Positions 5,260 through 57,361 of a stretch of 64,000 nt of DNA are shown here, one piece after another (position 1 is the stretch's first letter; each line of letters opens with the position of its first letter). The notes under the pieces are model-generated. The model made no database searches. It was not told the origin of the DNA and saw only the letters and a list, made by a program, of their open reading frames with translations. The position numbers were made by a program, and so were the translations under genes. Source of the DNA: a virus; IMG/VR virus record IMGVR_UViG_3300025133_000032, one strand, 5' to 3'.

Positions 5260-7650
5260 CTAAAAATCGACCTTCGTTCTAAATAACAATTTATCACTAT
5301 CTCGTTTTATTATAGGCTGAGCGAAGCGCGTCTTCATGATGACATTTAAGTTATCATCATGAAAATTAAGACCAGTGATGTATACAAATTTTGCATCAGT
5401 TTCATGAGCTAAATTAGATGCTGAAACTGGTATATATGATGGATTTGATGATGAATTAAATTCGCCTGCCCTTGCTGGAACGTGAATTCTCATCATGTGA
5501 ATGTTTTGCTCACCAGCTAAACTGATTTCGTATTTATCTTTCCCAAAAAATGGAATATTCGGCGTCTTGACAACAGCTAAGCCCTCATTGTAGAAAATAT
5601 TTCCGATGTTATTCCATGTTGCATGTTTTGTCTTTGAATCTGCCCTATACAACCCGCCATTAGAATTATCGCGTATCGTTATAGAAACTTTCCCATTTGT
5701 GCCAGTTATATTTGAATCAGTCGCTATGAATGTTCCAGGGTCAATCTTATTGCCATATAAGATATTACTGATGTCAAAGAATACAACTTCATTCGATGAA
5801 TTATCTCGTGTTCTTTGGTATACAGTATGAACAGCTCCAGGTGCAATGCCTACAGCCTCTGGGTTCGCGCCGGCCATCGTTTCAAAAAATGAACCTGAGT
5901 CAAAAATTAAACCATCGAATAACGTTGATGTTGGGATCATATTATTTAGTGTTATTAAACTATAATCCAAGTTCCCAAGATCATTTACATATTTATCATG
6001 AGCGCAACCTGATTGTGGGCATACATCACTTGCTCCTGATGCAAGCAAGCTAAAATCAGGAATGAATAAGCCATTGTCGTTAGGTAGCACAGTGACATTT
6101 CTTTTCCTCAACGAGCCTGTAGCGTATGTAAACTGGTTTGCGCTTAATGCCTGTGTGGGACCAGTTATCTGTGTACCAGAGAGGTTAAGAAGGCGTGGAA
6201 AGTTGCTTGTGATTAAGTCTTTTGTAAAATTTTCTAGATTTAGCAGATGACCTGCAAGCCCAAAAGAGTACGCAGTATTAAAGGGTGTATCCGTCGTACC
6301 AGAAATCGCTATAAAGGGAGTTTGTAGTATACCTCCCCTTACCGCACCAGCTACGCTTGTCCCTTGTGGGCTTCTCGTTGGTGAGCCTTTTGTAAAAAAT
6401 GGGGGAACATAAAAAATGATACTCCCAGTTTCAGTTGAACCAGTATGGGCAGAATATTGCAGTTGTTCGCTAGTTCTGTATGTGTTATGTATCTTTAGCT
6501 CATGAACTTCGGCGTTTAGTGGGTGCGAAAATGTATATGCCTGTGGACCATCAGTTGCCGCGTTTCCGTTATCGATTAGCTGGACCAGCCCTTCGCGCTT
6601 TCGTATATTTTGATTAAAGAATAATGCTTGATTGCTGTTTCCAGAGTTGTTTCCTTCATAAAAATTGCCAACGCACAAAACGTCTGGATTACCAGCAGAA
6701 AATGGTGCTGGAGCAATAGTAGCAGAAGGAAATACAAATGTACCTTTCTCTAAGCCATCTATAACAAATGAACCTGTTCTGCTATTTGTATTTTCTGCCC
6801 ATCTAATACCAACATGATGCCAATGATTTCTTTTAAGCGAATGCTCATCAGATAAATATGTCTGATCAGGAAGTGCTGAGAGATCTATTGATGAGGGAGA
6901 TGTATCTGCGCCACCTGATACTTGTAGCAGTATTCTATAGCTTGATACACGGTTTGTTGAGTCGCGTCCAGAGCCTGATACTATTGATACTGCATAACTA
7001 GAAGACAGGTGAAATAATGTGCCTGCTGGGTATTCATCAAACTGCTTGTCCGTCGTATATCTTGGATTTATATAGAACTCGAATGTGAATGCACCATCCA
7101 ACATATAAGAACCTGATGCAGCGCTGTTAGAGCTAGCAGACGAAGAGTTTGGGTATAATAACACAGAGTCAGTCGGGACAGATGATGCAGTAAAGAAATT
7201 TAGTGTATGATAATTTGTGTATGCCCAATGTGATGAAGGCTGGATATCCCTATAATATGGAAACAGTAAATTCTTTACTATATTTTTCTTACCAGTATCA
7301 GAAGTGAACTTCGTAGAAGGTTCAAATCTAGTAATCTGGCGGGTCGTCTGCTTCGCTATAGAGCGTACACTTGCGTTTACAGAACTAAGGTATGCTGCCA
7401 TTTCACTTGAGATGTCAGATGTACCTTTATTTACCGCTGTGGCAAGAATTTGTTCTATATTATTGTCATTAAACACACTTCCAGAAAATGTTGAAAGTGT
7501 GTTTAACTCTTTTTCTATTTTTGAACTTCGAGCAAAAAGTGAAACTGATCCAGTTACACCATCAGTCGACGATGATATAAACGTTCTACGAGGGTTCGTT
7601 TGCAACGTAAATTGTTCAACATCGTCCTTTCCGACGTATTGAATAGCCAT
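5260..7650 (-). CDS. Virion structural protein with LamG/concanavalin-like domain and DUF3751-like C-terminus
   Basis: FTFEFYINP...WHHVGIRW...FVIDG...HELKIHN is LamG-like. The C-terminal FNSSSNPSY...ITGLNFHDDN...QPIIKR...VDF is shared with 8090-9316. Confidence 0.7.
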   Translation of the reverse strand: MAIQYVGKDDVEQFTLQTNPRRTFISSSTDGVTGSVSLFARSSKIEKELNTLSTFSGSVFNDNNIEQILATAVNKGTSDISSEMAAYLSSVNASVRSIAKQTTRQITRFEPSTKFTSDTGKKNIVKNLLFPYYRDIQPSSHWAYTNYHTLNFFTASSVPTDSVLLYPNSSSASSNSAASGSYMLDGAFTFEFYINPRYTTDKQFDEYPAGTLFHLSSSYAVSIVSGSGRDSTNRVSSYRILLQVSGGADTSPSSIDLSALPDQTYLSDEHSLKRNHWHHVGIRWAENTNSRTGSFVIDGLEKGTFVFPSATIAPAPFSAGNPDVLCVGNFYEGNNSGNSNQALFFNQNIRKREGLVQLIDNGNAATDGPQAYTFSHPLNAEVHELKIHNTYRTSEQLQYSAHTGSTETGSIIFYVPPFFTKGSPTRSPQGTSVAGAVRGGILQTPFIAISGTTDTPFNTAYSFGLAGHLLNLENFTKDLITSNFPRLLNLSGTQITGPTQALSANQFTYATGSLRKRNVTVLPNDNGLFIPDFSLLASGASDVCPQSGCAHDKYVNDLGNLDYSLITLNNMIPTSTLFDGLIFDSGSFFETMAGANPEAVGIAPGAVHTVYQRTRDNSSNEVVFFDISNILYGNKIDPGTFIATDSNITGTNGKVSITIRDNSNGGLYRADSKTKHATWNNIGNIFYNEGLAVVKTPNIPFFGKDKYEISLAGEQNIHMMRIHVPARAGEFNSSSNPSYIPVSASNLAHETDAKFVYITGLNFHDDNLNVIMKTRFAQPIIKRDSDKLLFRTKVDF

Positions 7651-7669
7651 TTTTTACTCCAGTGTTGTA

Positions 7670-8080
7670 TTAATCAGTTAAACCTGAGCCAGTCAACGCA
7701 GCCATATGTTTACTAGGGATTACTGTAAGTTCAGCAGCAACTTCAAATACTGCATTTGCCGAGCCATCGGCAAGTGATACCCACATCTGTTTTGCCATAA
7801 CCTTAAACGTCGAAGAATTACTTGCTGAGGGTATTGTCGCGTAGTGCAATCCCGCCTCAACTCGTCCTGACGTCAGATCATTAAAATGAACTCTGATTGC
7901 TTGATCAGATTTGTTAGTTACCCTGATCTCTTTCGTTACATAGGGAAAATCTAATCTTTGTTGGGCGTTGTTGTTGCCAAAACTTGCTGCTAGTAGTGTC
8001 GAGCCTGTCATGTATGGAACTCCAGTAACCTGGTGAGAACCAACATTAAACAGACCCGCTGAGTGCCAATTAAGTGTCAT
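7670..8080 (-). CDS. Small beta-rich putative virion protein
   Basis: Lies in the structural operon; N-terminal GLFNVGSHQVTGVP; GGA upstream. Confidence 0.5.
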   Translation of the reverse strand: MTLNWHSAGLFNVGSHQVTGVPYMTGSTLLAASFGNNNAQQRLDFPYVTKEIRVTNKSDQAIRVHFNDLTSGRVEAGLHYATIPSASNSSTFKVMAKQMWVSLADGSANAVFEVAAELTVIPSKHMAALTGSGLTD

Positions 8081-8089
8081 ACTTTTTCC

Positions 8090-9316
8090 TTAAAAATCCA
8101 ATCTGATGCGAAGAGAAAGATCCTTCTCGTCGTTTTTTTCAACTGGGCGTGACAGCTTTGCTACAGCAAGCATATTGCTATTTGCATCATAAAGCCCAAC
8201 AGATGTTATAAATGTAAATGAACGTTGCGTTTCTTCTTGCCCAACATCAATAACTGTAATCTTGTTATCAGAATCAACGAATGATGTATTCGATGAATAA
8301 TTAAACTCATCTGCCGATGCTCTAGCAAAGTACAACGTCGAATTAATGTTTGTCAAATTCTGGAATGCCATAGCAGTTTCAGAGCCAGAACTAAATCGTG
8401 TAGAGCAAAAGTGATCGATGATGTTATCAACAGAACCTGATGTTAGAAAGTCCGGAATAAATTTTGCCCGAGGATTGCCGCCCTTGGGCCCACCAATAAC
8501 AGTCTGTCCAGCTTGAGGCACAGCACCTGCACCATTCAACGCAGAAATAGCACCTGTTACTAATTGTGATGATGATATAATTTTTGCGAGGTCAAGTACA
8601 ACCACACCTTGGTCATTAAACATCAACCCAACTGTTCTTGAGGTATCAGATGAATCTACGATGTTTGATACCTGACCGCCGAAAGTTACTTCTTTCGTTA
8701 TTGCCGCACCTGTATCTGTGAAAATAACTGAGCCTGATTCTGACGTCGTCGCTAAATTAGGTGTCGTCGGTTGTGATGCACCAAGAGGAGCATAAGCAGC
8801 AGATTGAAAGAACTTCATTGCGAAGGTTTCTCTCTTTATCTGATCGCGATGAAATAAGCGTTTGTAGCATATAAAGAGAGCGTCATCTAGTTGATCAGAC
8901 GTTGACATAGAATTTAGTGGCGCAACGAATTGTGCTGTAGATTCTCCTAAAAGGTTCTGCGCAAATTGTTTATAAACACTAACTTTTTCTCTCATCATTA
9001 AAGATGTAGATGGGAACAGCAGCTTACCAGCTGAATCTTCGCCAGTTTTAGCATCTTGAACTGTAGAACCAGAGTAAAACAAGCCAACCGTCATGTCAAA
9101 AATCGGGTTTGCTGTTTGAAGTGTAAAGTCTTGATCATAGACAGTCTGAAAGAGTGATGATGTGACCCCGGGCCCCACACCTCCCGTGACAAAAACTTGA
9201 TGTCTTTGACGTGTTGTAGAACCTGATATATCTTCTTGCGTAATATCAACTAACTGGTTAAGAAAATTCTTAACTGTTTTAACGTCTGACTGCTTTAATT
9301 CTTTAAATACTGACAT
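8090..9316 (-). CDS. Baseplate/tail structural protein with DUF3751-like C-terminal half
   Basis: FNYSSNTSF...FITSVGLYDANSNMLAVAKLSRPVEK...IRLDF. Confidence 0.65.
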   Translation of the reverse strand: MSVFKELKQSDVKTVKNFLNQLVDITQEDISGSTTRQRHQVFVTGGVGPGVTSSLFQTVYDQDFTLQTANPIFDMTVGLFYSGSTVQDAKTGEDSAGKLLFPSTSLMMREKVSVYKQFAQNLLGESTAQFVAPLNSMSTSDQLDDALFICYKRLFHRDQIKRETFAMKFFQSAAYAPLGASQPTTPNLATTSESGSVIFTDTGAAITKEVTFGGQVSNIVDSSDTSRTVGLMFNDQGVVVLDLAKIISSSQLVTGAISALNGAGAVPQAGQTVIGGPKGGNPRAKFIPDFLTSGSVDNIIDHFCSTRFSSGSETAMAFQNLTNINSTLYFARASADEFNYSSNTSFVDSDNKITVIDVGQEETQRSFTFITSVGLYDANSNMLAVAKLSRPVEKNDEKDLSLRIRLDF

Positions 9317-9322
9317 TTTTTA

Positions 9323-10021: not shown

Positions 10022-10096
10022 GTTGTTATCGTCTCCATTTTAAAAATCTTCTTTAATATATGTACTTTACATAAAATCTATTAGATTGATAAATAA

Positions 10097-14900: not shown

Positions 14901-16011
14901 CGTCAATATTAGTCTCAGAAAAAACCGACGTTGCGATTGTCTTTATATTTTTTAAACTTAACCCTGTAGAAACCCTCAATTCTTTTGACAATAAACTAAA
15001 TAGTATCTTTAGTCTGTCATCATGGTTTGTCACTTGTGATAAAGAAGACATGTATGATGTCAGTGCATTGCTTGTAGCGCCAGATTGAACATCCGCTTGT
15101 GAACTAAGTGATAGGTTTGCAATATCAAACTCTATGGCAGAACCGATCGTTTGATCATCTATTCTTGACAACCTGGTGGGATCTAGGTCATTTTCCCTGT
15201 CTGCGTTAGGCAAATCAAAAATTTGAGGCGAGAATGATGTTAATATCGCTCTCAAATCGTCTATCAACTGCCCTATAATCTTTGTATTCGTAAATTTCGC
15301 AAACCCTTGAGACGAAAACTTTAAATCATCAACCATTAGTTCGCTAAGCGTCTTTGTGGGACGTACGTTCCTAGATATACTGGCTTTATTTCTACCCTGT
15401 ATGTCTCGCCTCGCCTGTATTTCAGCCTTAATTTTATTACTATTCAACTTAACATTAAATGAAGTTTTTGAAGCATTTAACACTCTAACCAGACTATCAA
15501 GGAACTGGATTTCTTTATTTGCCGCCTCTTCATGCTGCGAAATCTCTTCTTCTATTCGAGAAATTATGCTGCTTGTCTCTGGGTTCGTTTTTAACTCGTT
15601 GACAAGCCTCATTACATTCTCAGCCTGTAAACGTCTTGCTGCTATTTGAAAATCGAGCATTTTTCCGACGGGCCCAGGGATGTTGTTATCATCTTCGTAA
15701 ACAGGCTCGAATTGAAATGCTGCAAGGATTTCGGGTCTAAAGCTGTTAAAGCCCTTATTCATTACTGCGTTATAATTGCTTGAATCAGATGATAACTTTA
15801 CACTTTCAAGTGATTCATTTGGTATGGTGTTTGACTCTGCTGGTGGCCGAGAAAATGTTGATACACTTGCCACAGTACTTTTAACTGCGTCTGTTAGGCC
15901 ATTTACAGTTAAGTTGCTTGTCGTTCTACCTTCTCTGGGTTGTGCAGCAACATTTCCAGTTCGTGCATTCCCTGATGTTGATGTATTCCCAGTTCTTGCG
16001 CCAATAGTCAT
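11992..16011 (-). CDS. Large (1339 aa) hypothetical protein, probably virion-associated
   Basis: Long ORF with stop/start overlaps on both sides, low-complexity termini and no recognised motif. Confidence 0.55.
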   Translation of the reverse strand: MTIGARTGNTSTSGNARTGNVAAQPREGRTTSNLTVNGLTDAVKSTVASVSTFSRPPAESNTIPNESLESVKLSSDSSNYNAVMNKGFNSFRPEILAAFQFEPVYEDDNNIPGPVGKMLDFQIAARRLQAENVMRLVNELKTNPETSSIISRIEEEISQHEEAANKEIQFLDSLVRVLNASKTSFNVKLNSNKIKAEIQARRDIQGRNKASISRNVRPTKTLSELMVDDLKFSSQGFAKFTNTKIIGQLIDDLRAILTSFSPQIFDLPNADRENDLDPTRLSRIDDQTIGSAIEFDIANLSLSSQADVQSGATSNALTSYMSSLSQVTNHDDRLKILFSLLSKELRVSTGLSLKNIKTIATSVFSETNIDGSIFEKMLGNIGNEVLSSIPPPENSISSLLRLVTADGVVLPFEQSAISTNAFQEYIPGGDFYVDSIVRGNNIFDSTQLNEYATALNSGVTGLAAIVEGTLDVNAVNNDRLGLNVDDLMDRAFRSIHDSAKSISDKDSTRDTFIPALLISASSDQTMRYYLYLYMLIFGYEKSDKFGVENKFFETMQSAGLTRAVVASAIKAAFLEPFVNPVQGLIDRAGNTSDIILISEMIMERVYFRFRKDTVDPSKSSYLGNFAFNHLTGLGAGTSQDNLFLSMFSMLNSLDNICRSAITATQSTDNSDAYFSNTHKGLTKFNNIGVHQMVMVVLDIFITTYTKFAPIMITGVKSLRSLDTSTSFSDALKVSSPGIEIDIDDDAFTVMEHSLFQFLDSGSRLSAGIDLRLDRDMRFRIGAQLGDLNNIRQKASNEDLLVRDIVDALLSIMNMVVASAAEAKSFFDPKGSNATLLESIALSIDSNEKLSALDAAQVSLARVELDDHIIARSTAASDQTNAGALSSDVSPFIDDTATSPDVRNSVFSLAKQPEFLGSAETSMKVLAVGIPAGFNDALKRKLDFFFADRSATKIKGSLSGIIKMNVYMQDAMFDDVIFKPKEYIFEMGRFVSADSFKNNVQEVMAFNNITTKIKHKVALSGSPLLESGVGIAALNSPEYEFLSDTQKLELITNHTKSYILRTYIKILTGVDMRENNFFLNDEVASMRVDSTTHEEFNKLLALHVSQFLNRKLTFDEIRASSDTIDRFLTKLDNDESLPGIIEKIANSFPAEPHSANIEISQDLVTFLNVFSSKSVLFGAGARRQKVLSPKLFERIFMLALDANDFEIDIEKTRSTTSGRTFLDSNTIVSGLTKVSTTTGQTTIDTFKVNYDVLRPKGAVGIQQFFVSIEHMPAADQVASPVPAQATEISFGNSGPRETPTTRTVSHGAAKGLASSTRTAMATKSEITRLTKPDAGLVEVL

Positions 16012-18476
16012 TAAATCCTTCCATCTTTAATTATTACCGTAGCGCTGTTTGATGACAACCCTCTTTTATAATCATTTAAAACAGGTATAACTCTATAACT
16101 TATTTCGCCGATATCATCTGACTCTAATGTGTCATAAAACTCGAACGTGTTGTTCGATGTTACATGATGAACTTTTCCAGAAATAGCACTCATACCAAGA
16201 TTGTCTTTTATTATAATGTAGTGTTCAACAAATGTAACATCACCATCAATTACCCATCTTACATTAACTGTATCGGTACTAACTCTTGTAGCACTGATTT
16301 TTTTGATAGAGGGCAATGATATGCTTAGAGGAACATTAATGACTAATGGGTTGCCTATTCTACCCATAGCAAAATCATCCTGTGGATGGTTTGAAGCATG
16401 TGACTGTCTGTCAATTAACGTACCTGTCTTTAAAGTAAATGGGTGCAAAAACTTCGCGGGCTTAAATGTATATGATTTCCCCGTAGAAACATCATCAGCT
16501 GACTTAACATAATCGTCGAATGTAGTCTCTGCATCTCGTAATAATGTTGTAATAATGTAACGATAATTGTTACCTACTTTTAGAGGTTTAATTGAGGTAC
16601 TTACGCTTGCAGCACTGTCGATAAAAATTTCGTCTGTAATAGTACCAAAATCTTCTTTTTCGCCAGTAGTCAAATTTAATCTAACAATATTATGTGCGAT
16701 TAGTCTCTGCAGCTTATTTCGCTCAAGCTTTAACTCTTCGCTAAATAAGCTCGCAAGCCCTTGCTTTTCTAGTGTTTTTTTCACTGCATCTAAATCGGTG
16801 GCTTCTATTTTTGACGCAACATTAAAAGAAACATCTGTTCTCGAACTATTCTTTATAACTTGTAAATTACTAATTTTTGCTGTAACAACACCCACTGAAT
16901 GCTTTATGAACTCATGTAAAACATTCGCGCTTGAGTCTAAAACGGAACCATCATTGTAATAAAGCCTACATATATACTCATATACATGACTATCTTTTAC
17001 ATCTGAGTCAATAAATAGCGTGTTTTGCAGCCCATCATTAATTAAGATGACCCTAGTGTCTGTCTTAATGAATTGAAATTCTTTTTGAAATACTGTTTTA
17101 TCTCTCTTTAAAATGGCGACGGCTATTGGCCCAGGCGAAACATTTTCAACCAATACTTCAACACCTGAAGGTGAATTTATTGCTGAGAGTGATGCGAAGG
17201 CTTGTCTGTGCGACGCATCGCCACCTATACCTTTTTGTGCAATAGCAACGGCATTTGCAAACTCAGCACCTTGTGCATTTCCTGGACCAATAGAGATGCA
17301 CCTGTATAAGTTGATGTGTGAATTATTCGTAACGTCAGTAAACTTGACTATGCCTTCCGCTTGCGTTAACTTGAGTTCAGCGATGAACTGATAGACAGAT
17401 GATAACATATCTGGGTCTGATTTTTTTATTGAACGTCTATAAACGCCAACCTTCATGGCGATGGGATCATTCTGCTGAACTTCTAGAACATTCCTACCAG
17501 ATATTTGAGTTGGTGATATATTAATGCTTGGAGGTAGTCTAGGTGTATTAAATACTTTTGATAGAAAGCTGTGGTTTACTCTTCTTGCTTGTGACTCTAG
17601 TACTTCACCGGTGCTAGTTATAAGCTCAAAAATGACATAGAAATCTTCTAAGCCGACATCGACCTCAGGCACTAGAACAAGCTCAGAATTTCTTACGTCA
17701 ATTTGTTTTTTATTAGAAACTACTGGAACTGGTGTATTTGCTGCAAGATCACCTAATGTTATTGTTTTCTTAACATTACTTAATAATGTATCTATAAGAA
17801 ATCTTCGGCGTGAATCTTGCGCATTTACCGTGGGCGTTTCAACTTGTTCTTGTGCAATAGGAGCGACGCCACGAAATGCTTTTTCTGTCCCTACAGATGG
17901 TCTATACCTTGCAGCTACTGTAGATGGATCAACACCATCATTGAATATCATATCAACTGCCGCTACTTGATGACCTTGTCGTGATGATGTTTCTTGTGAC
18001 CGGGCTACTGAGTTTTGTATGACTGGTACATTCAAGTTTGAAGCCCTTATCTCCGTGACAGTTTTTAAGTCGACAACTTTACGAGCAGGCATTATGCTGC
18101 TTGCTGGCAAAGAGCTTAATTTTATGCTAGAGATGAGATCATTGTTTAGCTTCGACGTGATATCAGAGTTTTTTCTTACCAGTATACTTGACTCATCATC
18201 TCTTTTTGCCGACTTTTTCTTTGGTTCATAATGTAGTATATCTTCAATAAGTTCATAATTCGATTTACCAGCACTCTTGAAGATGTTATCTTCTTGCAGG
18301 GGTAAACTTTTTCTAACAGACAACCTAACTATATTTGCGCCTTTTCTAAGTGCATCGATCGTTGAAGATCTATATTCAAACTTGTAATAAAATATTCCGC
18401 CCTCTATCTTTAAAAGTTGTGCGAAATTATTATCGACCTTAAGTAATTCGGATGTTTTTTTGCTTGCGATTTTCAT
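16011..18476 (-). CDS. Putative structural protein with tandem Fn3/Ig-like domains
   Basis: Repeated FxD....YxYxx patterns (LYRCIS, YEYICR, YRYIIT, SYRVIP); AGGTGA RBS. Confidence 0.55.
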   Translation of the reverse strand: MKIASKKTSELLKVDNNFAQLLKIEGGIFYYKFEYRSSTIDALRKGANIVRLSVRKSLPLQEDNIFKSAGKSNYELIEDILHYEPKKKSAKRDDESSILVRKNSDITSKLNNDLISSIKLSSLPASSIMPARKVVDLKTVTEIRASNLNVPVIQNSVARSQETSSRQGHQVAAVDMIFNDGVDPSTVAARYRPSVGTEKAFRGVAPIAQEQVETPTVNAQDSRRRFLIDTLLSNVKKTITLGDLAANTPVPVVSNKKQIDVRNSELVLVPEVDVGLEDFYVIFELITSTGEVLESQARRVNHSFLSKVFNTPRLPPSINISPTQISGRNVLEVQQNDPIAMKVGVYRRSIKKSDPDMLSSVYQFIAELKLTQAEGIVKFTDVTNNSHINLYRCISIGPGNAQGAEFANAVAIAQKGIGGDASHRQAFASLSAINSPSGVEVLVENVSPGPIAVAILKRDKTVFQKEFQFIKTDTRVILINDGLQNTLFIDSDVKDSHVYEYICRLYYNDGSVLDSSANVLHEFIKHSVGVVTAKISNLQVIKNSSRTDVSFNVASKIEATDLDAVKKTLEKQGLASLFSEELKLERNKLQRLIAHNIVRLNLTTGEKEDFGTITDEIFIDSAASVSTSIKPLKVGNNYRYIITTLLRDAETTFDDYVKSADDVSTGKSYTFKPAKFLHPFTLKTGTLIDRQSHASNHPQDDFAMGRIGNPLVINVPLSISLPSIKKISATRVSTDTVNVRWVIDGDVTFVEHYIIIKDNLGMSAISGKVHHVTSNNTFEFYDTLESDDIGEISYRVIPVLNDYKRGLSSNSATVIIKDGRI

Positions 18477-18488
18477 ATATCACCTGTA

Positions 18489-19406
18489 TTACTCAAAAAT
18501 AAGTGTAAATATATTCACGAATGTATGAGCGCCGAAGCTATCAATAAATAGCTTCCCTATGAAATATATTCTCTTATTTGGGAAATCTTGATCTCCAGTT
18601 GAAATTTCGCCAAAATCAATAGCGTCTAACTTCAAAAGTCGATCTTGCTTAAATTCAAAAAATTGACACATTACGTTCGCTTGTAGTGTATTTTGTGAAA
18701 ACTCTATAACACGCTTTTCTTTGTTGGCCAATTCACCCATGAGCTGTGTATATGACAACTCACTCTTTTGCTGGCCAAGCAAAGGATAATCACCAAGTGA
18801 TGTGCCGTCGGTGTTTACTGGCGGTAGATATTTGAAGTTCGGAAGGTGAGACAGCCTCTTATCCTGAAACAATGTTTCAACATCATCTATATTTGCTGTC
18901 GTCATTTGTCCGGGGTTAATAGGTGCAGCATCAGAAATACTAAATTCTACTTCGTTTGTATTCACAGCGAATTCGTTTTCTGCATCAAAGAAATTATCTT
19001 CTGTTCTAATTAGTTGCAATTTTTGAAAATTGTTGACTGTTGTATCAGCAAGTACCTCTGCCAAGCTTGAAAATGCGGATCCAGTAACAACTCCAAGAAA
19101 TGATGTAGATGAACCTGATAAAATCTTGCCATCGAGAACATCAATATTTGAACCTCTTAAAGGTTTAAGCTTTCCAGAATCATCTGACTCAAATGTTATT
19201 CTATCTTGGGGCAGCGAACCAACCTCAAGGAATAATCTATCAGATGCGTCTGTTGACCCGCTGATTATGTCACTTTCATAAAATGTGTTACAATCTGTAA
19301 ACGAGACGAATTTTATTCTTAATTCGCCGGCAGCTATTTGTCTCTTGCCCTCGTCTGTAACGACGGTATCAAGCATTCTTGTTTTGCTGTCTAAAATACC
19401 TGACAT
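18489..19406 (-). CDS. Structural protein, N-terminal paralog of 9323-10021 (likely start MSGILD at 19406)
   Basis: LDTVVTDEGKRQIA...IKFVSFTD aligns with LDAVLTDTGRQFLS...VKFAFGD. Confidence 0.6.
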   Translation of the reverse strand: MSGILDSKTRMLDTVVTDEGKRQIAAGELRIKFVSFTDCNTFYESDIISGSTDASDRLFLEVGSLPQDRITFESDDSGKLKPLRGSNIDVLDGKILSGSSTSFLGVVTGSAFSSLAEVLADTTVNNFQKLQLIRTEDNFFDAENEFAVNTNEVEFSISDAAPINPGQMTTANIDDVETLFQDKRLSHLPNFKYLPPVNTDGTSLGDYPLLGQQKSELSYTQLMGELANKEKRVIEFSQNTLQANVMCQFFEFKQDRLLKLDAIDFGEISTGDQDFPNKRIYFIGKLFIDSFGAHTFVNIFTLIFE

Positions 19407-19407
19407 G

Positions 19408-22017
19408 TTAGTTCCTTGATACCCCATCAAAATAGGGTAAACTAGATGTTGCTTCGTGACTTAAGTTTGAAGAATCTGTTGTAATAGGTGTAACTGCTGT
19501 ATTCGAACCTGACGCAACGAAGCGTATAGTAATGGGGCTTGTGCGTAGAGCTGGGCCCCCAGACTTTATACCATCGCTTGTTAACCCTATAATATCATAG
19601 AATTTTGCATCTAAGCGCTGCTCAAGCATATCTCTGAAATATCCATAGTGATCTCTCTTGAAGATGGCCTTTGTAAATTGCTTTATTGGGTTCAAGATGC
19701 CATACTTGAAGCCTCTATGTACGGAGCCAAAAATATATTTATCAGACCTGACCTCAAAAGGCTTTACGCTACCAGAGAAAAAGTCGCCTGTACCATAATA
19801 ATGCAAAAGCATATCTCTTGATGAAGCTGCACTGTGATGAGTAAAATCTCCTGCTGAGCTTACCCTATCTTTAGCATTTAATAGTGAATACCTTTGAGTA
19901 GAGAATAAAAGATCATTAGATCTCTTAATGGACATCGGAGAACGCCTAGTTACACCGGGTATGAATGTTTGATCTGCCACTGTCGGTAACGTTAGATTTC
20001 TGTTTAACGATGAATATTTTGGCTCAAACGGAAAAGCTAAGGGCCACGTAGTGTCTGTGTTGCTATCACCAGTCATAACGTGACCTAAGTTAATCATGTT
20101 TTGGTTAGCCAGCGTTCCGCCGTTTGATTGCCACTCAACTAAGACACCATTCAGCGCAGTTATTTCAGCTGGATCTGGTAATAATGTATCAAAGAACCTT
20201 TCATTCTCCGATGTATGTTGAGTACCCCGAATAAATCCTGGGATAAATGAGCCAGATAAAAGTTTATGATGACTTACATTTCTGTCAAAAGAGATTGTTG
20301 ATGCTTGGACGCGCCTAGACTCCGCTAACCCGATAGTACCAGTTAAAAATCTAGCATTTATTGTACCAGAAAACTGTGTTAATTGCTCGACGTCGAACTG
20401 ATCATGAATAATCCCAGTTCCTCTCACGTCTTCATGTACAGCATTTGTCGTTAATTGCTGGTTGAGTGAATCATGAATTTCTTGAGCATCACAAATGTAT
20501 GACCCATATAATGTTAACCTACCAGACGCCGGTGGTAACGTTAGTGTTGGATTAAATGCATTTGCGACGCTTACTGGTGAACCAGGTTGAGCAACTTGCC
20601 ACCCAAAAATAAGCTTATCACCTGGCATAATGATGTACGGACTTGTACCAGAAATTACAGTAGCTTTGTTAAAATCCGTTAAGGCAATTGGTGTATTCCC
20701 GATGTTCGAAACGAATCCAGAGACAAGATCTCTTCCTGATGGCTTTCCTAAATTGCCTCGGCCACCGAAACGATAAGTTACAGGTTCTTCATTGACATCA
20801 TCGTTATCATTAAAGCTACTATGCAACCCTACCTTCGCGGGTGTTTTTGCGACGCCCGACAATATCAGTTTATCTGACCAGTTAGCTCCTGTCGTAGATA
20901 TTATATTCTTTTCCCTAAGAGCAAAGTTTGAGTGGTCAGACGAAGAAGAGTTAATGGTCGAAGAAAATGATGCAACTTGCAACCATGTAACGATATCACG
21001 CTGAGTATCAACGTATGTAGGTGAACCATTTTGTGATAAAATGATACCAGAGGGAATTGATGTTGTTAGTTGCTTGGTGTCAGTTAGTAAATATGGGCCA
21101 TTACTTATTGAAGCAGAAAATGGACCTCTCTGGTTCAAGACAAAAAATGTGTTATAGAGGCCCTCAGATTGTTCAATAAAGTCACCAGTTCCGCTAAATG
21201 ATGCAGAACATTCATATATAACCTTTTCTACTAGAAAGGGTTTGTCTATCAAGTTAGAAACTGGGTAAACTTGCGATGAAGTTGCATGAAATTTTTGGTG
21301 GGTAGGAAATCCGAATGCATCAAATGGGATTGCCGACTGCGAAGAATTGCCTATAATATTACCATCACCCAAAAATGATGGCGAAAAGCCTAACATTTGA
21401 GTTGCTAAGTTGTGATCAGGCTGTCCATCCGCTGTAGGCGAGTTTGTATTATATCCTGTCCCTTGGCCAACATTTTCCCAGGACACTTTATCAAAATTGT
21501 AATATGCCATAGGATAACTGCCGGTGCCATCTACCCTATCATTGTTTAACGATGATGATAATTGCAGTGTTGTAGTCAATGACTGGTTTAAGTTTACAGT
21601 TAGTTTAGTCTTACTTCGTAAGGGTGATGTAAACCCGAACCCTACGGTTGCTAATGTTGAACCAGTTTCATGAAAGTTATCATAGACACTTTGCTCAGGA
21701 TGTAAGCTATCATCGAAGGCAGACAGTATCTGACCAGTAGAGAATATTGCGATGCCGTCGGCGATACCTTTCCGTACGGCCCCAGTTACTGACGTGAATG
21801 AGGATGTCTGGTCAGTAATAAATGGTGATGATAAAGGTAACCCAGCGGGTAATGTGATCTGTGTAGATTCAATAAACACAATAGAGTTTGTATCATCGAA
21901 CCTGCTGCCAAATGTACCGGGGCGATCTGTACTCGTTCTAGAAATAGTAGGATAACTACCAGTCGTGTTATCCTCGTCTCGTATCTGTATACGAGATGCT
22001 AAGTTGATGTTAGTCAT
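19408..22017 (-). CDS. Ser/Thr/Gly-rich putative virion protein (869 aa)
   Basis: Structural operon context, [ST]GS motifs and a C-terminal HYGYFRDMLEQR...SSNLSHEATSSLPYFD. Confidence 0.55.
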   Translation of the reverse strand: MTNINLASRIQIRDEDNTTGSYPTISRTSTDRPGTFGSRFDDTNSIVFIESTQITLPAGLPLSSPFITDQTSSFTSVTGAVRKGIADGIAIFSTGQILSAFDDSLHPEQSVYDNFHETGSTLATVGFGFTSPLRSKTKLTVNLNQSLTTTLQLSSSLNNDRVDGTGSYPMAYYNFDKVSWENVGQGTGYNTNSPTADGQPDHNLATQMLGFSPSFLGDGNIIGNSSQSAIPFDAFGFPTHQKFHATSSQVYPVSNLIDKPFLVEKVIYECSASFSGTGDFIEQSEGLYNTFFVLNQRGPFSASISNGPYLLTDTKQLTTSIPSGIILSQNGSPTYVDTQRDIVTWLQVASFSSTINSSSSDHSNFALREKNIISTTGANWSDKLILSGVAKTPAKVGLHSSFNDNDDVNEEPVTYRFGGRGNLGKPSGRDLVSGFVSNIGNTPIALTDFNKATVISGTSPYIIMPGDKLIFGWQVAQPGSPVSVANAFNPTLTLPPASGRLTLYGSYICDAQEIHDSLNQQLTTNAVHEDVRGTGIIHDQFDVEQLTQFSGTINARFLTGTIGLAESRRVQASTISFDRNVSHHKLLSGSFIPGFIRGTQHTSENERFFDTLLPDPAEITALNGVLVEWQSNGGTLANQNMINLGHVMTGDSNTDTTWPLAFPFEPKYSSLNRNLTLPTVADQTFIPGVTRRSPMSIKRSNDLLFSTQRYSLLNAKDRVSSAGDFTHHSAASSRDMLLHYYGTGDFFSGSVKPFEVRSDKYIFGSVHRGFKYGILNPIKQFTKAIFKRDHYGYFRDMLEQRLDAKFYDIIGLTSDGIKSGGPALRTSPITIRFVASGSNTAVTPITTDSSNLSHEATSSLPYFDGVSRN

Positions 22018-22853: not shown

Positions 22854-25800
22854 TTATTGTCTCCCCAATTGACCTGTTAGCTGCTGTACCAATATGATAC
22901 CCTTCTTGCTGTCTCTATCAGCCTCGCCCAAATAAATATCGGTCGAATGATATTCAAGCTTAGGCCTTTCAAGCATGTGGCTTTCAATAATGAAATTTGT
23001 CCCTAGAAATAGCGTCTTCCTTGGGACAAGCTGCTCTATAAATGATGATATACCCAGCATTGAATCAAACCACTTAAAAAATTCAAAAAATTGTCTCATT
23101 CTTACTTGTCCAGTTAGTCTATTAAAGTAAACATTTCTGAGCGTTTCGAGCTCTGGATAATCTGGAGAAAATAACAATTCAGGGTTACCTAAAGTGTTGT
23201 CTAAGCTATCTAGTGTTGAAAATATCTTAATGATATCGTCATTTAGAGCATCCATGATAGAAAAATCTATAGAGAACCTGGCATCATCGACAGGAGCTTC
23301 GCTTAAAGGGATCTCATAAACTGGAGCTATCTGCGTCTTAAATGATGAAGCATTTTCGAATGATTGGAAACTTCTTATTCTTACTTTATTGTTCGATGCT
23401 GCTTCATCAAACCTAGGTGATAGCTGACTAAAGAAATATCTCTCTGGTGATAGAACGTTAACAGATGGCTCAAATCCAGAAGCTGCGCCATGGAAATTAT
23501 TCTGCGAATAGTCAAAAAGTTCTATATCACCACTTGCTGAGCTCTTTGATAAGTGCTGCTCTGTCGTAATATCCAAACGAAGCTTCTCGAATGAACCTGA
23601 GAAGCCGGTTGAAAAGTTAAAATTTGAACCGGGAGTTTCTACACCAAGAGAATCATAGTTTCTTGCATGCTCAATACTTTCGCCCTTTGTAAGCCCCTTA
23701 CTCCAGAAACGTATCTGCGTAACTTTTCCACTGAACGATGTTGCTTTGGCCATTTGACCTACGGCGGAGTTGTTCAAGAACATGCCAGACTGGTTCTCAG
23801 TTAGGCTTTGCGAACCAATCACGACAAATGTACCAGAAGCATTTAGTGTAGGTGATATAACAGACTGTGCATCAGACATACCTGCTGTTGAGCCTGATGC
23901 AAGAAAAAGGCTTTGCGTTGTATAACTTTCTACTATAGATCCAAACTCTTGTCTTGCTGCTCGTAAGAAATATGAAGAGGAATTAAAGGCTCCAATTTCG
24001 TCGCCTCTATTTCTACCGAATGAAATACTCCATGGATGACCATCCATGACATCAGCACCTGATAGTGGCAGCGTCAATGTTGGAGCTGTGCCGCCTACGC
24101 CCGGAGATGCAAATAGCGTGAGCATAGATCCAGACACAGCTACTAAGTTAAATAATAAGCCGCCTGACCCTGTTACCTGAGTCGCAGAGCCTGTTGTAAA
24201 TATTCTAGCAAGGCTCTGTGTTACGGCATGTTGCCCAGTTATATAAGTGGGGTGTCTATATAGCGCTTCATATGTCCATGAACCAGATGTGAACAGGCCA
24301 TCACTGGCATCATTCGAGATACCATGGGGGCTATGCATCGAATGCTGGGTCATAAGTCCGCGAGCACCAGGGAACCCAACCTCTGTTCTTGAGCCCGAGA
24401 GATATGGCAATTTCAAAAAAGGTTTATTATTCGGAATGCCATGCGTATTAAATGATGAAACTACTGATGCTAAAGACCCACTAAAGTCCAGCATTGTTCC
24501 TACACGAGATCTATCTTCTCTTGAATCCTGCAGTGATCTTTTTGTTGCGCCGCCAAATTCGCGTATTTTGAAATTACTATTTGCGTCAATGCCCATTGAA
24601 CGTAAGAGTGACTTTATACTATGCAATGTTCCCTTTGACTTAATAATCTCGCTAATGTTCGTTAATATCCGGCGCCAAATTTGGTTTTGGACATACTGTA
24701 ATGCTAGAGCATTCGTGCTGATGTCACTACCGATATTTTCTGCATCAATAAATTGCTCGATTGATGAATTCACAAAAAATGCAGGCATTTCGAAGCCATA
24801 GTAATTTGCAAGAAACGGCAAAAACTGATCGGCTGTAAAGTTTGGCTTGTCATAATCAACATGTGTAATTGACCCAAACAAGTCAACCATCATTTTGATT
24901 TCGTCAAAAAACTTTGCCCATGTATACAAAAATGATGACATTAATTGTGATGTTCCAAACTCTGCGCTACCAGGAATACCACTACCAGCCAGTGTATCAC
25001 CTATCGAACCAGTTTCGCTACCAAGACCTTCATGTACCTGACCTTCTAAGAAGTAGTGGTCAGGTATAAGCTTCGTAATGATATTCGGATTATCACTATC
25101 ATATAAGCTGGCCGAGGCCAATAAACTTTCATTGAATGCCGCAACACCAGCGTAGCTTGGAAATAAAATTGGGTTCGCTGCTAATTTTTCCGAAAGCATA
25201 GGTACGGGAATAGAACCAGTATTTCTTAAACTGAGTGAAAAATTCGATATTTTTGAGTGTAAAGAGTTTCCAGAACTATCTAAAATCGTGCTGTCTGGAC
25301 CGATTGTTCCTGAGGGTTCATTGAACTTAAAATATAACTTTAGCTCAGGAGTTGCAAAAATTGATTTTTTTGCAAAGAGTTTTTGTTCATTCAGTGTTCT
25401 GGCGCTATGAAATACCCTGAATTCGTCTATCGCTCCAGATAATGTAGCTTCGGGTGTTACTATACCTGTGTGTAAAGAACCGCTACCTATAATCAGGGGT
25501 GAGGTAGTAAAGTCTATTAAACCCATTTCTTCAATGTTCGATGACGTTGAAACAAGCGCTTGGTTTAAAAATAGCTGTAAGTTGTTTATGCCTGGCCTTC
25601 TATCAAATGTAGCTACAACATGCGAAAACTGGCCCTTCGTAATTGGCATGCTCGTAGTAAGTGTATGCGATCCAGAACTAACCCCGAAAAGAAGACCACA
25701 TGTTGCAGTAGATGCGGAACCCGTCAAGGCAATCGATAAACCACTACTTGATCCAGAAAGTTTTTGACAGATTACTTGAGCTGTGTTTGTCTCGGCCGGC

Positions 25801-26348
25801 ACATAAATGTGGAATTCTGTAGTAAATGGGTTTAGACCAGGGTCAAGTATATTATCGCCCGACCTTGTCTTTGATACAGTCGGGTATTGATGTCCAGCAA
25901 AGTCTTTAACACTAATGTATGTTCCCTCGCTAGAAGATGGTGAGGAAGATCCAGAGAAGAATAAGTAGCCTTTATTACGTGGGAAACTATCAAATACCCA
26001 TTTCTCATAGCCCGTTAATGAATCTAGAAATACCTCAACCTCTTTTCTTGTTCCATCAAATGGGTATTCATTAATAATTCTATCAAATGCAACGTTTACA
26101 TTGACTTCAGCAGAGCTAAAAAATGTATGATTTTCAAAGCTTGAAAAGTCTGTAGGAATCTGTTGTGTCGAACGGATGCCAAGAAATGGTGGGTCATATC
26201 TGAATGAGGCTGATGAGGCGACATTTGTGTCTGCTAGATCTTGTGCGTTTTTATTGACAACAGACCCATTATCGTCGACGATGCGACGAATAGCCGTCGA
26301 TGAAAATAGCCTAGGTTTACCAAAATCGAGTGCTGTTCTTTTTGCCAT
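22854..26348 (-). CDS. Baseplate wedge protein (P2 gpI/T4 gp7-like core) with two LamG-like domains
   Basis: gpI-like segments LPFLANYYGF...IWRRI...KSKGTLHSIKSLL and IEQLVPRKT. LamG-like segments FSHVVATFD...IDEFRVF and FSGKVTQIRFW. Confidence 0.7.
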   Translation of the reverse strand: MAKRTALDFGKPRLFSSTAIRRIVDDNGSVVNKNAQDLADTNVASSASFRYDPPFLGIRSTQQIPTDFSSFENHTFFSSAEVNVNVAFDRIINEYPFDGTRKEVEVFLDSLTGYEKWVFDSFPRNKGYLFFSGSSSPSSSEGTYISVKDFAGHQYPTVSKTRSGDNILDPGLNPFTTEFHIYVPAETNTAQVICQKLSGSSSGLSIALTGSASTATCGLLFGVSSGSHTLTTSMPITKGQFSHVVATFDRRPGINNLQLFLNQALVSTSSNIEEMGLIDFTTSPLIIGSGSLHTGIVTPEATLSGAIDEFRVFHSARTLNEQKLFAKKSIFATPELKLYFKFNEPSGTIGPDSTILDSSGNSLHSKISNFSLSLRNTGSIPVPMLSEKLAANPILFPSYAGVAAFNESLLASASLYDSDNPNIITKLIPDHYFLEGQVHEGLGSETGSIGDTLAGSGIPGSAEFGTSQLMSSFLYTWAKFFDEIKMMVDLFGSITHVDYDKPNFTADQFLPFLANYYGFEMPAFFVNSSIEQFIDAENIGSDISTNALALQYVQNQIWRRILTNISEIIKSKGTLHSIKSLLRSMGIDANSNFKIREFGGATKRSLQDSREDRSRVGTMLDFSGSLASVVSSFNTHGIPNNKPFLKLPYLSGSRTEVGFPGARGLMTQHSMHSPHGISNDASDGLFTSGSWTYEALYRHPTYITGQHAVTQSLARIFTTGSATQVTGSGGLLFNLVAVSGSMLTLFASPGVGGTAPTLTLPLSGADVMDGHPWSISFGRNRGDEIGAFNSSSYFLRAARQEFGSIVESYTTQSLFLASGSTAGMSDAQSVISPTLNASGTFVVIGSQSLTENQSGMFLNNSAVGQMAKATSFSGKVTQIRFWSKGLTKGESIEHARNYDSLGVETPGSNFNFSTGFSGSFEKLRLDITTEQHLSKSSASGDIELFDYSQNNFHGAASGFEPSVNVLSPERYFFSQLSPRFDEAASNNKVRIRSFQSFENASSFKTQIAPVYEIPLSEAPVDDARFSIDFSIMDALNDDIIKIFSTLDSLDNTLGNPELLFSPDYPELETLRNVYFNRLTGQVRMRQFFEFFKWFDSMLGISSFIEQLVPRKTLFLGTNFIIESHMLERPKLEYHSTDIYLGEADRDSKKGIILVQQLTGQLGRQ

Positions 26349-27901
26349 TATGGATCTACTCTAAAAACGCCACCAACACGTTCAAAAATCTGCTTGACGC
26401 CGCCGTTATTTATTAACATATCTATCTGATAAACTCTTCCAACATCTAAATCATTCATAAATAAATCGAAGTACATTCCTGATGAGTCTGTCGATAGTTT
26501 TGTTGAATTTGTCGTTTCATCAAATTCAAAAATAGTTTCGTTGCTGTTCGTATCTCTGACTCTGTAATAAGCTTTATCAAAAATTACACTTTTTGCTTCT
26601 ATAGGTACTCTAGTGTAGCGTAATGAAAACGTGCCCTCATCTTGTGCAAATACCCTAAACCTAACTTTCTCAGTTACTTTAAAAAATTCTCTCATATTTG
26701 TGACGTTAAGCTTTAAACGCTCAGGGACATTAGAGAATGATGATTTGGGTATAGTCTTTACTACGAGCGTACCAGTATGATAACCTATCGTACCATCGAG
26801 TGAACCCCAAATTTCAGTGAATGTTGCTGACTGTGCATTTATTATTTCATCCCTAAGTGCTGGTTCAAATGAAGAGATTGATAATGATGCAGAATAGACT
26901 CCTGGGATAAAATTCGTACCAACCTGATGTTGTGATGCCGTTGTTGTCAACGAAAAATACGAATTTGCAAGAGAACCAGAGTTCGTCCCCGACGTGACGG
27001 TCAACAACAGAGAATTTAGACCTGATATTTGTGTGGCTGCGGTGCCTGACACTATATTCGATGGTTGGCCCCGAGCAAAATTATTTAAAAACAGTGATCC
27101 GCTAACATCAAACTCAAAATTTTCGTGGTTATCATGCACCGAGTCGTCCCAGCCGATGATGACCCTGGGTGTCTGCCTTGTATTAGTACTATGTCTTGAT
27201 ATGAATCTTTTTACAAACCGGGTCTTTGAATCTGTTTCCTGACTTCCTGAGAATGATATACGGAAACCATGGTCTGGAAGTTGGTTTGTCATCGTCGCCG
27301 AGATGATAGACGTAATATCCATGCTAAGATCTTCAGAGCCCTCAGCGAAATATTGTGTTGCAAACATGTTACCAAGAGACGTAGAGCCAGTAATTACGTC
27401 AACATTTTGCTGACCTGCATATCCCATTGCATTGGCACCAGACTGTGCCCAAATTGACGTTGATCCGCCTGCTGTTGATGCTGTAATGAAGTTACATGAA
27501 TCTATATCTTCATATGAAATAACATCACGCCCCAGTCCCTCATCAAATGATTTTGATAGCGGATATAATATCGCAGTAAAGTTTGAAGGTATTGTTTGCC
27601 CGCCGATTACGTCAAACATCTTTAGTGTACATTTAAATGACTGATCAGAGATATCAAGTATGCTAGATGTTAATGCATATAACGGGCTTAAATCAAATTT
27701 TAGTAAGAGTCTTGTTAGCTCAATTGGGTCTGTCGTTCCTGAGATCAGTGGACCATCAGTAGTGTATGAAGATTCACCCGCAAGCTTAAATAAATCCAAC
27801 GTTCCTGCTTGACCGACATTTGTGTCTGTCGCACGAAAAGCATTACGTATTATTCTGTTTGTTATGTAAGTATCTTTACTAGCTGATAATAGTCTTTTCA
27901 T
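26348..27901 (-). CDS. CBM96/DNRLRE-like domain structural protein
   Basis: ASKDTYI...TRLLLKFDL...TLKM...MDITSII...HGFRI...PRVIIGW pattern. Confidence 0.65.
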   Translation of the reverse strand: MKRLLSASKDTYITNRIIRNAFRATDTNVGQAGTLDLFKLAGESSYTTDGPLISGTTDPIELTRLLLKFDLSPLYALTSSILDISDQSFKCTLKMFDVIGGQTIPSNFTAILYPLSKSFDEGLGRDVISYEDIDSCNFITASTAGGSTSIWAQSGANAMGYAGQQNVDVITGSTSLGNMFATQYFAEGSEDLSMDITSIISATMTNQLPDHGFRISFSGSQETDSKTRFVKRFISRHSTNTRQTPRVIIGWDDSVHDNHENFEFDVSGSLFLNNFARGQPSNIVSGTAATQISGLNSLLLTVTSGTNSGSLANSYFSLTTTASQHQVGTNFIPGVYSASLSISSFEPALRDEIINAQSATFTEIWGSLDGTIGYHTGTLVVKTIPKSSFSNVPERLKLNVTNMREFFKVTEKVRFRVFAQDEGTFSLRYTRVPIEAKSVIFDKAYYRVRDTNSNETIFEFDETTNSTKLSTDSSGMYFDLFMNDLDVGRVYQIDMLINNGGVKQIFERVGGVFRVDP

Positions 27902-33617: not shown

Positions 33618-33941
33618 TCAGGCGTCGGCGGGTGAATTCTGGCCTGTATCCTGATCATCAGATACAGTATCATTGGCAGCATGAGCCATGATGTTCGAGA
33701 CCTGCAATATTGCACTGTGCGCATCATCTACACGCTTGACAACAAATCTAATCTCTTCGCTATCGGCGGCTACAGGCATCTCAAGAACATCATAAACTGA
33801 GTTATACACATCATCTAAAATTCTTAATGCATCTTCTGTAGCATCATTAAACTTAAAAATTCTTTTTGCAAAAACGAAGTTATACCTAACTGAGATTAGG
33901 AATAGCACCAGAATTACGCCGAATGCAATCCAACCAGTCAT
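33618..33941 (-). CDS. Membrane-anchored hypothetical protein
   Basis: N-terminal hydrophobic helix WIAFGVILVLFLISV followed by a helical soluble part. Confidence 0.6.
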   Translation of the reverse strand: MTGWIAFGVILVLFLISVRYNFVFAKRIFKFNDATEDALRILDDVYNSVYDVLEMPVAADSEEIRFVVKRVDDAHSAILQVSNIMAHAANDTVSDDQDTGQNSPADA

Positions 33942-46614: not shown

Positions 46615-46637
46615 TAATTTAATTTACCCCTTATTGC

Positions 46638-49798: not shown

Positions 49799-49799
49799 C

Positions 49800-51266: not shown

Positions 51267-51267
51267 T

Positions 51268-57355: not shown

Positions 57356-57361
57356 TTTTTA

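Follow-up and report, generated by a model that had tools for sequence, protein, structure and literature searches.

To our knowledge, glycosylation of phage virion proteins is known from very few systems, none with a defined acceptor motif. Mycobacteriophage virions are reportedly glycosylated by phage-encoded glycosyltransferases (GTs), a case in which the chemistry is said to have been shown, and the glycans reportedly sit on Ser/Thr-rich C-terminal extensions of capsid and tail-tube subunits. In Gram-positive bacteria, the adjacent GT4-type proteins GtfA and GtfB form a cytoplasmic priming complex that acts on serine-rich-repeat adhesins; GtfB is non-catalytic, and the substrate is a long disordered Ser-rich repeat. 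The bacterial autotransporter heptosyltransferase systems TibC/TibA and Aah/AIDA-I O-glycosylate a beta-rich surface protein in the cytoplasm with ADP-heptose as the donor. The acceptor Ser of TibC and Aah lies in a short inter-strand loop, and the enzyme reads structure together with a short sequence. Here we analyzed a 64,000-nucleotide stretch of viral DNA (IMG/VR virus record IMGVR_UViG_3300025133_000032; this whole stretch is called the window) in which the tripeptide [ST]-G-S is over-represented in a series of tail proteins. Judged from sequence, [ST]-G-S is a short tag that peripheral baseplate and fibre proteins have retained across a deep lineage of T4-like aquatic phages, and that the tail sheath of Flavobacterium phage immuto carries as well. 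We infer glycan attachment, and consider it an evenly poised proposal that the tag is the acceptor site of cytoplasmic O-glycosylation.

The tripeptide was recounted in the translated open reading frames (ORFs), with 2,000 composition-preserving shuffles per protein as the null. The proteins concerned form a series of large unannotated products at 5260-27901, downstream of the gp25-like and gp6-like genes, and every gene in the 64-kb window lies on the minus strand. PHROGs gave no annotation for any of the motif-rich proteins. The features are as follows (aa, amino acids).

29791-30258, minus strand: gp25-like protein, assigned by Pfam and PHROGs
27912-29786, minus strand: gp6-like inner baseplate wedge protein, 624 aa (PHROG baseplate wedge, 4.5e-15); 0 motifs
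26348..27901, minus strand: all-beta baseplate protein of 517 aa, encoded immediately downstream of the gp6-like gene; 4 [ST]GS (z = 2.9), 8 [ST]G[ST]
22854..26348, minus strand: 1164-aa baseplate protein; 15 [ST]GS against 2.5 expected (z = 8.0), 17 [ST]G[ST]
19408..22017, minus strand: 869-aa tail-module protein; 6 [ST]GS and 10 [ST]G[ST] (z = 3.1 and 3.7)
18489..19430, minus strand: 313-aa tail-module protein; 3 [ST]GS (z = 4.9)
16011..18476, minus strand: 821-aa Fn3-like, Ser-rich tail-module protein; 0 [ST]GS; Fn3 look-alikes in the Atlas at 0.92
8090..9316, minus strand: 408-aa distal tail/fibre protein; 5 [ST]GS (z = 5.5)
7670..8080, minus strand: 136-aa protein; 2 [ST]GS (z = 4.1, p = 0.02)
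5260..7650, minus strand: 796-aa distal tail/fibre protein; 9 [ST]GS (z = 6.8), 12 [ST]G[ST]; no Pfam match

In the seven motif-bearing tail-module proteins together, 44 [ST]GS were found against 8.0 expected (Poisson P = 9e-19). The remaining 51 ORFs of the window held 11 against 9.2 expected, which corresponds to chance, and a general depletion of the motif outside its targets was accordingly unsupported in the window; depletion was seen only in some orthologue families. Among all tripeptides of the seven proteins, SGS (27 versus 4.7) and TGS (17 versus 3.5) ranked first and second by z-score, and the permutations GSS, SSG, STG, and TSG were observed as often as expected. The signal persisted in block shuffles of 10, 20, and 40 residues, with z staying at 9-10 and ~7, by which local low-complexity composition was ruled out. 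The codons at the three motif positions are diverse; the signal therefore lies in the protein and not in the DNA, and a DNA-level motif was ruled out. No longer repeat surrounds the motif, and the only flanking preference is a mild one for hydrophobic residues at positions -2, -1, and +3 (0.5 versus a background of 0.32). In a looser form the tag reads [ST]-[G>A,S]-[S>T,A]. In an all-against-all BLAST of the window proteins, the seven proteins showed no detectable paralogy apart from the C-terminal ~80 aa common to the 796-aa and 408-aa proteins, and a repeat unit or paralogy was thus ruled out as the source of the motif.

These recounts bear on the original prediction, which had proposed [ST]-G-S as a candidate O-glycosylation sequon from hand counts. 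Its counts were all reproduced except that of the 869-aa protein, which carries 6 motifs and not 5. The absence of the motif from the gp6-like protein (an internal negative control), the 548-aa spike, and the 821-aa protein, and its mere two occurrences in the 1339-aa protein, were found as described. The enrichment that was to be checked by shuffling survived it, the hydrophobic residue said to precede the motif is indeed raised at -2 and -1, and the view that the motif recurs across unrelated folds and is not the repeat of one domain agrees with the lack of detectable paralogy. The label of LamG protein given to the 796-aa product was misplaced, since the Pfam Laminin_G_3 match (PF13385, 4.7e-16) falls in the 1164-aa protein.

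The ~80-aa C-terminal module common to the 796-aa and 408-aa proteins (5260-5500 and 8090-8330) also ends several fibre-module proteins of immuto and Microcystis phage Mel-JY01, and may be a common tip or attachment domain. The 408-aa protein further shows weak homology to fibre-module proteins of these two phages.

Conservation of the motif was evaluated in metagenomic relatives. An IMG/VR scan with the 1164-aa protein gave 80 loci at 40-61% identity, and their ORFs were assigned to the window families. [ST]GS exceeded expectation 6.2-fold in the 1164-aa family (840 versus 136; 76 orthologues), 6.3-fold in the 517-aa family (431 versus 68.8; 79 orthologues), 5.7-fold in the 313-aa family (48 versus 8.5; 20 orthologues), and 3.8-fold in the 869-aa family (345 versus 91; 46 orthologues). 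It fell below expectation in the gp6-like family (19 versus 45.9, 0.41-fold; 78 orthologues), the gp25-like family (2 versus 8.7, 0.23-fold; 78 orthologues), and the 821-aa family (1 versus 15.8, 0.06-fold; 13 orthologues). The depletion in these three families is only suggestive because orthologues are not independent.

The excess was concentrated in ~18 recurrent alignment columns of the 1164-aa family and ~12 of the 517-aa family. At one site, SGS stands in 76 of 77 sequences, and others are kept in 25-80%. Motifs in rare columns occurred at about the chance rate (1.1-2.2 versus 1.8). The sites are therefore old and position-specific, with no fast turnover, and a rapid turnover of the glycan-shield type was unsupported. 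At the recurrent sites, position 1 is S or T in 80% of sequences, with free exchange of the two at several sites and with Asn and Asp nearly absent; position 2 is G in 74% and G, A, or S in 90%; and position 3 is S in 67% and S, T, or A in 84%.

We further compared the window with cultured and other phages. No isolated phage with DNA-level similarity to the window was found, and the gp6-like protein is ~29% identical to its counterparts in immuto, Mel-JY01, and the uncultured 484-kb phage LR756508. The comparison included the two adjoining GT4 genes of the window, GT421 and GT391. Around and downstream of gp6, [ST]GS reached 62 against 14.5 expected in immuto and 49 against 7.4 in Mel-JY01. 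In Rhodothermus phage RM378, six adjacent genes at 64.8-76 kb held 21 against 3.3. Both GT genes are present and adjacent in each of these three phages, in more diverged form in RM378. Neither GT421 nor GT391 was matched in T4 (8 versus 11.9 in baseplate, fibre, and other structural genes) or, with counts taken over baseplate and fibre genes, in Vibrio phage VH7D (7 versus 6.0), Salmonella phage SenALZ1 (12 versus 9.3), and Synechococcus phage Bellamy (19 versus 12.6). LR756508 has a GT421-like gene only, a GT391-family match being absent across its whole 484 kb; the 141 kb around its baseplate held 28 motifs against 20.8, with a maximum of 3 in any single protein. Thus, the five phages without a GT391 orthologue showed no clear motif excess. 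The four control phages T4, VH7D, SenALZ1, and Bellamy ruled out a generic trait of T4-like tails.

In immuto and Mel-JY01, the gp6-like and gp25-like proteins contain no motifs, and the gp6-like protein of the window has none either. Homology between the enriched proteins of immuto, Mel-JY01, and RM378 and the distal proteins of the window is limited to short stretches or is absent. The residue preference per position is alike in the four enriched lineages (S/T; G then A; S) and is not seen in T4. In the head and tail module of immuto, the sheath was enriched (7 versus 1.28), and the major capsid protein (1 versus 0.59), portal, terminase, hub, and tape measure were not. Hidden Markov models (HMMs) of the gp6-like, gp25, 517-aa, and 1164-aa proteins gave no match in RM378, and the enriched cluster of that phage therefore cannot be called baseplate.

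Three further over-representations were observed in these phages. Gene 214 of immuto (locus L106, 31032-32153), encoding a 373-aa hypothetical protein in the head/neck region, holds 12 [ST]GS against 1.26 expected, the densest occurrence seen. In the RM378 cluster (locus L100, 34826-45969; 64.8-76 kb), [ST]-Y-S is also over-represented (14 versus 4.2), and D-G-S is raised in immuto (11 versus 2.6). The latter two may be lineage-specific variants of the tag.

The GT pair lies upstream of the gp25-like and gp6-like genes, with a sugar island beyond it at ~39-62 kb.

35110..36375, minus strand: GT421, soluble GT4, first gene of the pair (Pfam Glycos_transf_1, 1.9e-14)
33938..35113, minus strand: GT391, soluble GT4, second gene of the pair (Pfam Glycos_transf_1, 8.2e-09)
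39289..62112, minus strand: sugar-nucleotide and glycosyltransferase island, assigned by Pfam

The C-terminal GT-B domains match PF00534 with 54 bits in GT421 and 35.7 bits in GT391 (cut-off, 26.4). Both proteins carry the EX7E motif (residue 288 in GT421, EGFGLSTLE; residue 277 in GT391, EGFGLPLLE), whose two glutamates do not vary in the family alignments. No transmembrane or hydrophobic segment was found in either protein. From these sequence features, both enzymes should therefore be soluble, cytoplasmic, and active. In a structure model of the GT421-GT391 complex, ipSAE was 0.89, compared with 0.00 for the best control; the score mark for a heterodimer is reached by 58 of 80 solved complexes and by 2 of 110 mismatched pairs. 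Three runs agreed in 100% of contacts, the pLDDT of the partners was at least 89, and the C-terminal tail of GT421 packs on residues 245-253 of GT391. The confidence of this model supports a heterodimer of the two enzymes.

PDB sequence and profile searches with the pair returned only generic GT4 donor-domain matches, and the acceptor domains matched nothing known; for GT421 as a single sequence, the best PDB match was transferase B736L of chlorovirus NY-2A. In a set of 50,697 phage records, GT421 matched only immuto, Mel-JY01, LR756508, RM378, and, weakly, Tetrasphaera phage TJE1. In the same records, GT391 had good matches only in immuto and Mel-JY01; seven actinophages matched it at 22-32% identity, and a profile search found its N-terminal domain in RM378 as well. 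More than 3,400 environmental homologues of GT391 were found. Within the window clade, GT421 and GT391 are each kept at 50-59% identity, and the gene order is invariant wherever the flank extends: GT421, GT391, three small genes, spike, gp25, gp6, 517-aa, and 1164-aa. The two GT genes also keep their adjacency and order in immuto, Mel-JY01, and RM378.

The order PD-(D/E)XK nuclease, GT421, GT391 is common to the window (37678-38565; 33938-36375), immuto, and Mel-JY01 (loci L102, 7965-11884, and L103, 7376-12303), with one or two small genes between the nuclease and the GT pair. The sugar island lies upstream of the nuclease in the window and downstream of the GT pair in immuto and Mel-JY01.

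According to Pfam, the island encodes NeuB, two CMP-transferases (one fused to an HMGL-like domain), a GT29-like protein, several GT2 and GT4 enzymes, the GDP-mannose dehydratase Gmd, a dehydratase/DegT/GNAT/FdtA set, and methyltransferases. With ~11 GTs and no Pfam match in the island to flippase, polymerase, or oligosaccharyltransferase families, its acceptor is probably cytoplasmic, and the island is the presumed source of the glycan. Among the 58 ORFs of the window, no match was found to the 5mYOX/TET, ThyS-type hydroxymethylase, or C5 methyltransferase Pfam families, and Pfam gave no 2OG oxygenase in the island. The CMP-transferase fusion (40426-42180, minus strand) is a 584-aa protein combining an aldolase-type domain that resembles HMGL with a CMP-sugar cytidylyltransferase domain; it adjoins the second cytidylyltransferase, NeuB, and the GT29-like sialyltransferase homologue (42946-43635), a set of nonulosonic-acid genes that is unusual in a phage. 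A 435-aa PIN-PhoH fusion is encoded at 62177-63484 (minus strand), on the upstream border of the island.

The positions of the motif were then viewed in AlphaFold (AF2) models built from family alignments (517-aa protein, pLDDT 86; 1164-aa protein, pLDDT 79). The 1164-aa model consists of two LamG/ConA-like jelly rolls and a helical core, and Foldseek matched it to the laminin LG4-5 pair and other LamG-type and pentraxin-type domains with a probability of 1.00. All 17 [ST]G[ST] sites of this model lie in its beta-rich parts, with none in the helical core. At 8 of the 17, position 1 is the last residue of a strand or one to two residues beyond it, compared with 12% for background S/T (P = 3e-4). 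Two sites form two-residue hairpins, at 225-227 (strands 216-225/228-237) and 739-741 (strands 730-738/742-747). Each has an upstream TGS, and the two seem to correspond to one another between the LamG-like domains; some sites would therefore have been inherited with the domain. The 517-aa model showed no significant strand-edge bias. Mapping on structures, which had been expected to place the motif in surface loops, thus gave beta-rich surroundings and frequent strand ends for the 1164-aa protein and no such bias for the 517-aa protein.

An order-specific tripeptide common to proteins without detectable homology calls either for a reader acting in trans or for a highly specialized structural role, all the more so because the tag is kept across diverged lineages and is absent from equally beta-rich tails of other phages. 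The GT pair co-distributes with the motif, is predicted to be soluble, forms a complex in the model, and heads a sugar island without export genes; for these reasons, cytoplasmic O-glycosylation appears to be the best explanation. In this proposal, the GT421-GT391 heterodimer would recognize the tripeptide on folded or folding tail proteins and would start the glycan with one or more sugars on the position-1 hydroxyl, after which the variable transferases and sugar-nucleotide enzymes of the island would extend the glycan ahead of tail assembly. The hydroxyl kept at position 1, with S and T interchangeable at several sites, counts in favor of an acceptor role. In its fullest form, the proposal is a three-residue O-glycosylation code, [ST]-G-S, that would be read by a heterodimer of two active GT4 enzymes, kept from the thermophilic phage RM378 through immuto and a cyanophage to abundant marine jumbo phages, and would direct a phage-made, lineage-variable glycan (here including nonulosonic acids) to the exposed tips of tail proteins. 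We rate this full form slightly below an even chance.

Several observations weigh against glycosylation. The acceptor domains of both GTs are unlike any known protein O-glycosyltransferase in the PDB searches. The 821-aa Fn3-like protein belongs to the same module and lacks the motif, so that some presumably exposed proteins are unmarked. In immuto, Mel-JY01, and RM378, the GT pair is remote from the tail genes and stands beside a PD-(D/E)XK nuclease or beside replication genes. The phages bearing the pair are one lineage, and the co-distribution amounts to one or two independent contrasts confounded by phylogeny; in the gp6 tree, LR756508, the window clade, and immuto/Mel-JY01 form a single 100/100 clade with an unresolved trichotomy. 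The sequon reading of the original prediction is borne out in part, by the enrichment, its order specificity, and its co-distribution with the GT pair, and is weakened by the position of that pair in the three cultured phages. Its more particular claims fared in the same divided way. The glycosylation machinery is a neighbor of the baseplate operon in the window clade and not in immuto, Mel-JY01, or RM378. Co-occurrence with a GT orthologue was seen, since enrichment marks the four lineages that carry the pair and not the five phages that lack GT391, although few of these contrasts are independent. The claim that the motif marks outward-facing proteins agrees, indirectly, with the enriched sheath and unenriched tape measure, hub, and portal of immuto, and disagrees with the unmarked 821-aa protein.

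The same evidence must be set against other explanations. If the motif were purely structural, it would be a clade-specific strand end or tight hairpin (an ST-turn followed by Gly) in jelly-roll or beta-sandwich tail domains drawn from old families, and the GT4 pair and the island would act on something else, for example DNA or host glycans. The restriction of the excess to old recurrent columns, with rare columns at chance, also fits such an element, and conservation of the glycine nearly equals that of the hydroxyl (0.74 versus 0.80). The sites at strand ends and in two-residue hairpins point the same way, at least two of them occupying homologous hairpin positions in the duplicated LamG-like domains of the 1164-aa protein, as do the absence of linkage between the GT pair and tail genes in three of the four lineages and the existence of phage GT clusters that glycosylate DNA (bioRxiv 10.1101/2023.12.21.572611). 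However, the beta-rich tails of T4, VH7D, SenALZ1, Bellamy, and LR756508 have no such excess, and neither the Fn3-like 821-aa protein nor the gp6-like protein of the same phage carries the motif. Position 1 almost never holds Asn or Asp, the residues that commonly form turns, Ser at position 3 is specific, and the tripeptide persists where homology is undetectable and in an unrelated fold, the immuto sheath. In addition, eleven GTs with rare-sugar pathways go far beyond the known DNA glycans, which are mono- to trisaccharides, and glycosylation of DNA would leave a protein motif unexplained. We regard a purely structural motif as rather unlikely, though as the main rival.

A reader other than the GT pair would also account for a motif that acts as a code in unrelated proteins across lineages, since that behavior demands a reader and does not name it. 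The reader could belong to a different modification (phosphorylation or ADP-ribosylation), could be a tail-assembly chaperone, or the motif could itself contact a host surface polymer at repeated sites. Pfam and PHROG scans of the tail module turned up no kinase or dedicated chaperone family, and a 225-aa ORF two genes upstream of GT421 (36983-37660, minus strand) has no Pfam match. GT391, the sole candidate examined, does co-distribute with the motif in the phages compared, and another reader thus seems improbable. Chance or a composition artefact could be suspected because S, T, and G make up more of the enriched proteins than of the other window proteins. It is refuted by the global and local composition-preserving shuffles (z up to 10), by the same-composition permutations, which are not enriched, by the equally Ser-rich 1339-aa and 821-aa proteins, which are not enriched either, and by the reproduction of the excess in hundreds of orthologues.

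If the [ST]-G-S tag is an acceptor site, its system shares some traits with each of those described at the outset. As in the mycobacteriophages, the GTs are the phage's own, and O-glycosylation of structural proteins would take place in the cytoplasm, ahead of assembly or while it proceeds. The differences are that the tag consists of internal tripeptides on baseplate, fibre, and immuto sheath proteins, is known from sequence alone, spares the immuto major capsid protein, and would be served by a distinct GT4 pair. With GtfA/GtfB, the window pair shares the adjacency of two GT4-type proteins, and the complex model lends support to a heterodimer. By contrast, GT421 and GT391 both keep EX7E, so that neither should be a catalytically dead partner, and the sites are single tripeptides within folded beta domains; neither GtfA nor GtfB was represented among the PDB sequence and profile matches of the pair. 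With TibC and Aah, the proposed system shares cytoplasmic O-glycosylation of a beta-rich protein and differs in enzyme family, donor, and oligomer, and no homology of the GT pair to heptosyltransferases of this type was found in Pfam or PDB searches.

Phage GT clusters have been described that glycosylate DNA, giving mono- to trisaccharides, and that are linked to base-modifying enzymes of the 5mYOX or ThyS type (Pyle et al., bioRxiv 10.1101/2023.12.21.572611). The window resembles these in having phage GT-A/GT-B enzymes and sugar-modifying genes, sometimes near structural genes, with a probably cytoplasmic acceptor and no exporter match. It differs in that the 64-kb window has no Pfam match of the 5mYOX or ThyS type and in that its island is far larger. 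The window phage also resembles the moraphages, which the part of their description examined here (PMC12619734) presents as aquatic jumbo phages with genomes of up to 307 kb, predicted Bacteroidota hosts, gp6, gp25, PhoH, and four core glycosyltransferase orthogroups. In that part, virion glycosylation is mentioned as no more than a possibility, and an acceptor motif is not described. We found no earlier account in print of the [ST]GS motif, and literature searches on Mel-JY01 and on glycosylated tail fibres yielded nothing relevant. If [ST]-G-S is a sequon, the defined tripeptide, the distinct heterodimeric GT4 enzyme, and the targeting of the tail and not the capsid would be new relative to the known systems.

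Just past the fibre genes, 311-1930 and 2593-4056 (both minus strand) encode a paralogous pair with 49% identity over ~480 aa, carrying leucine-rich-repeat-variant (LRV/HEAT) arrays. The two genes flank a 191-aa ORF.

Should the proposal prove true, [ST]-G-S would represent, for prokaryotic viruses, the first defined sequon of a virus-encoded system that glycosylates proteins in the cytoplasm, and glycosylated virion surfaces would become predictable from sequence alone in thousands of abundant aquatic phages. It would also account for the large, variable sugar islands of these phages. Because three cultured phages (immuto, Mel-JY01, and RM378) hold both the motif and the enzyme pair, the idea is directly testable, and a compact cytoplasmic system of two enzymes and three residues would be useful for glyco-engineering. 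For the phages themselves, it would mean a glycan coat on the organ of host recognition, with a bearing on host range, on evasion of defence and grazers, and on the stickiness of particles at sea.

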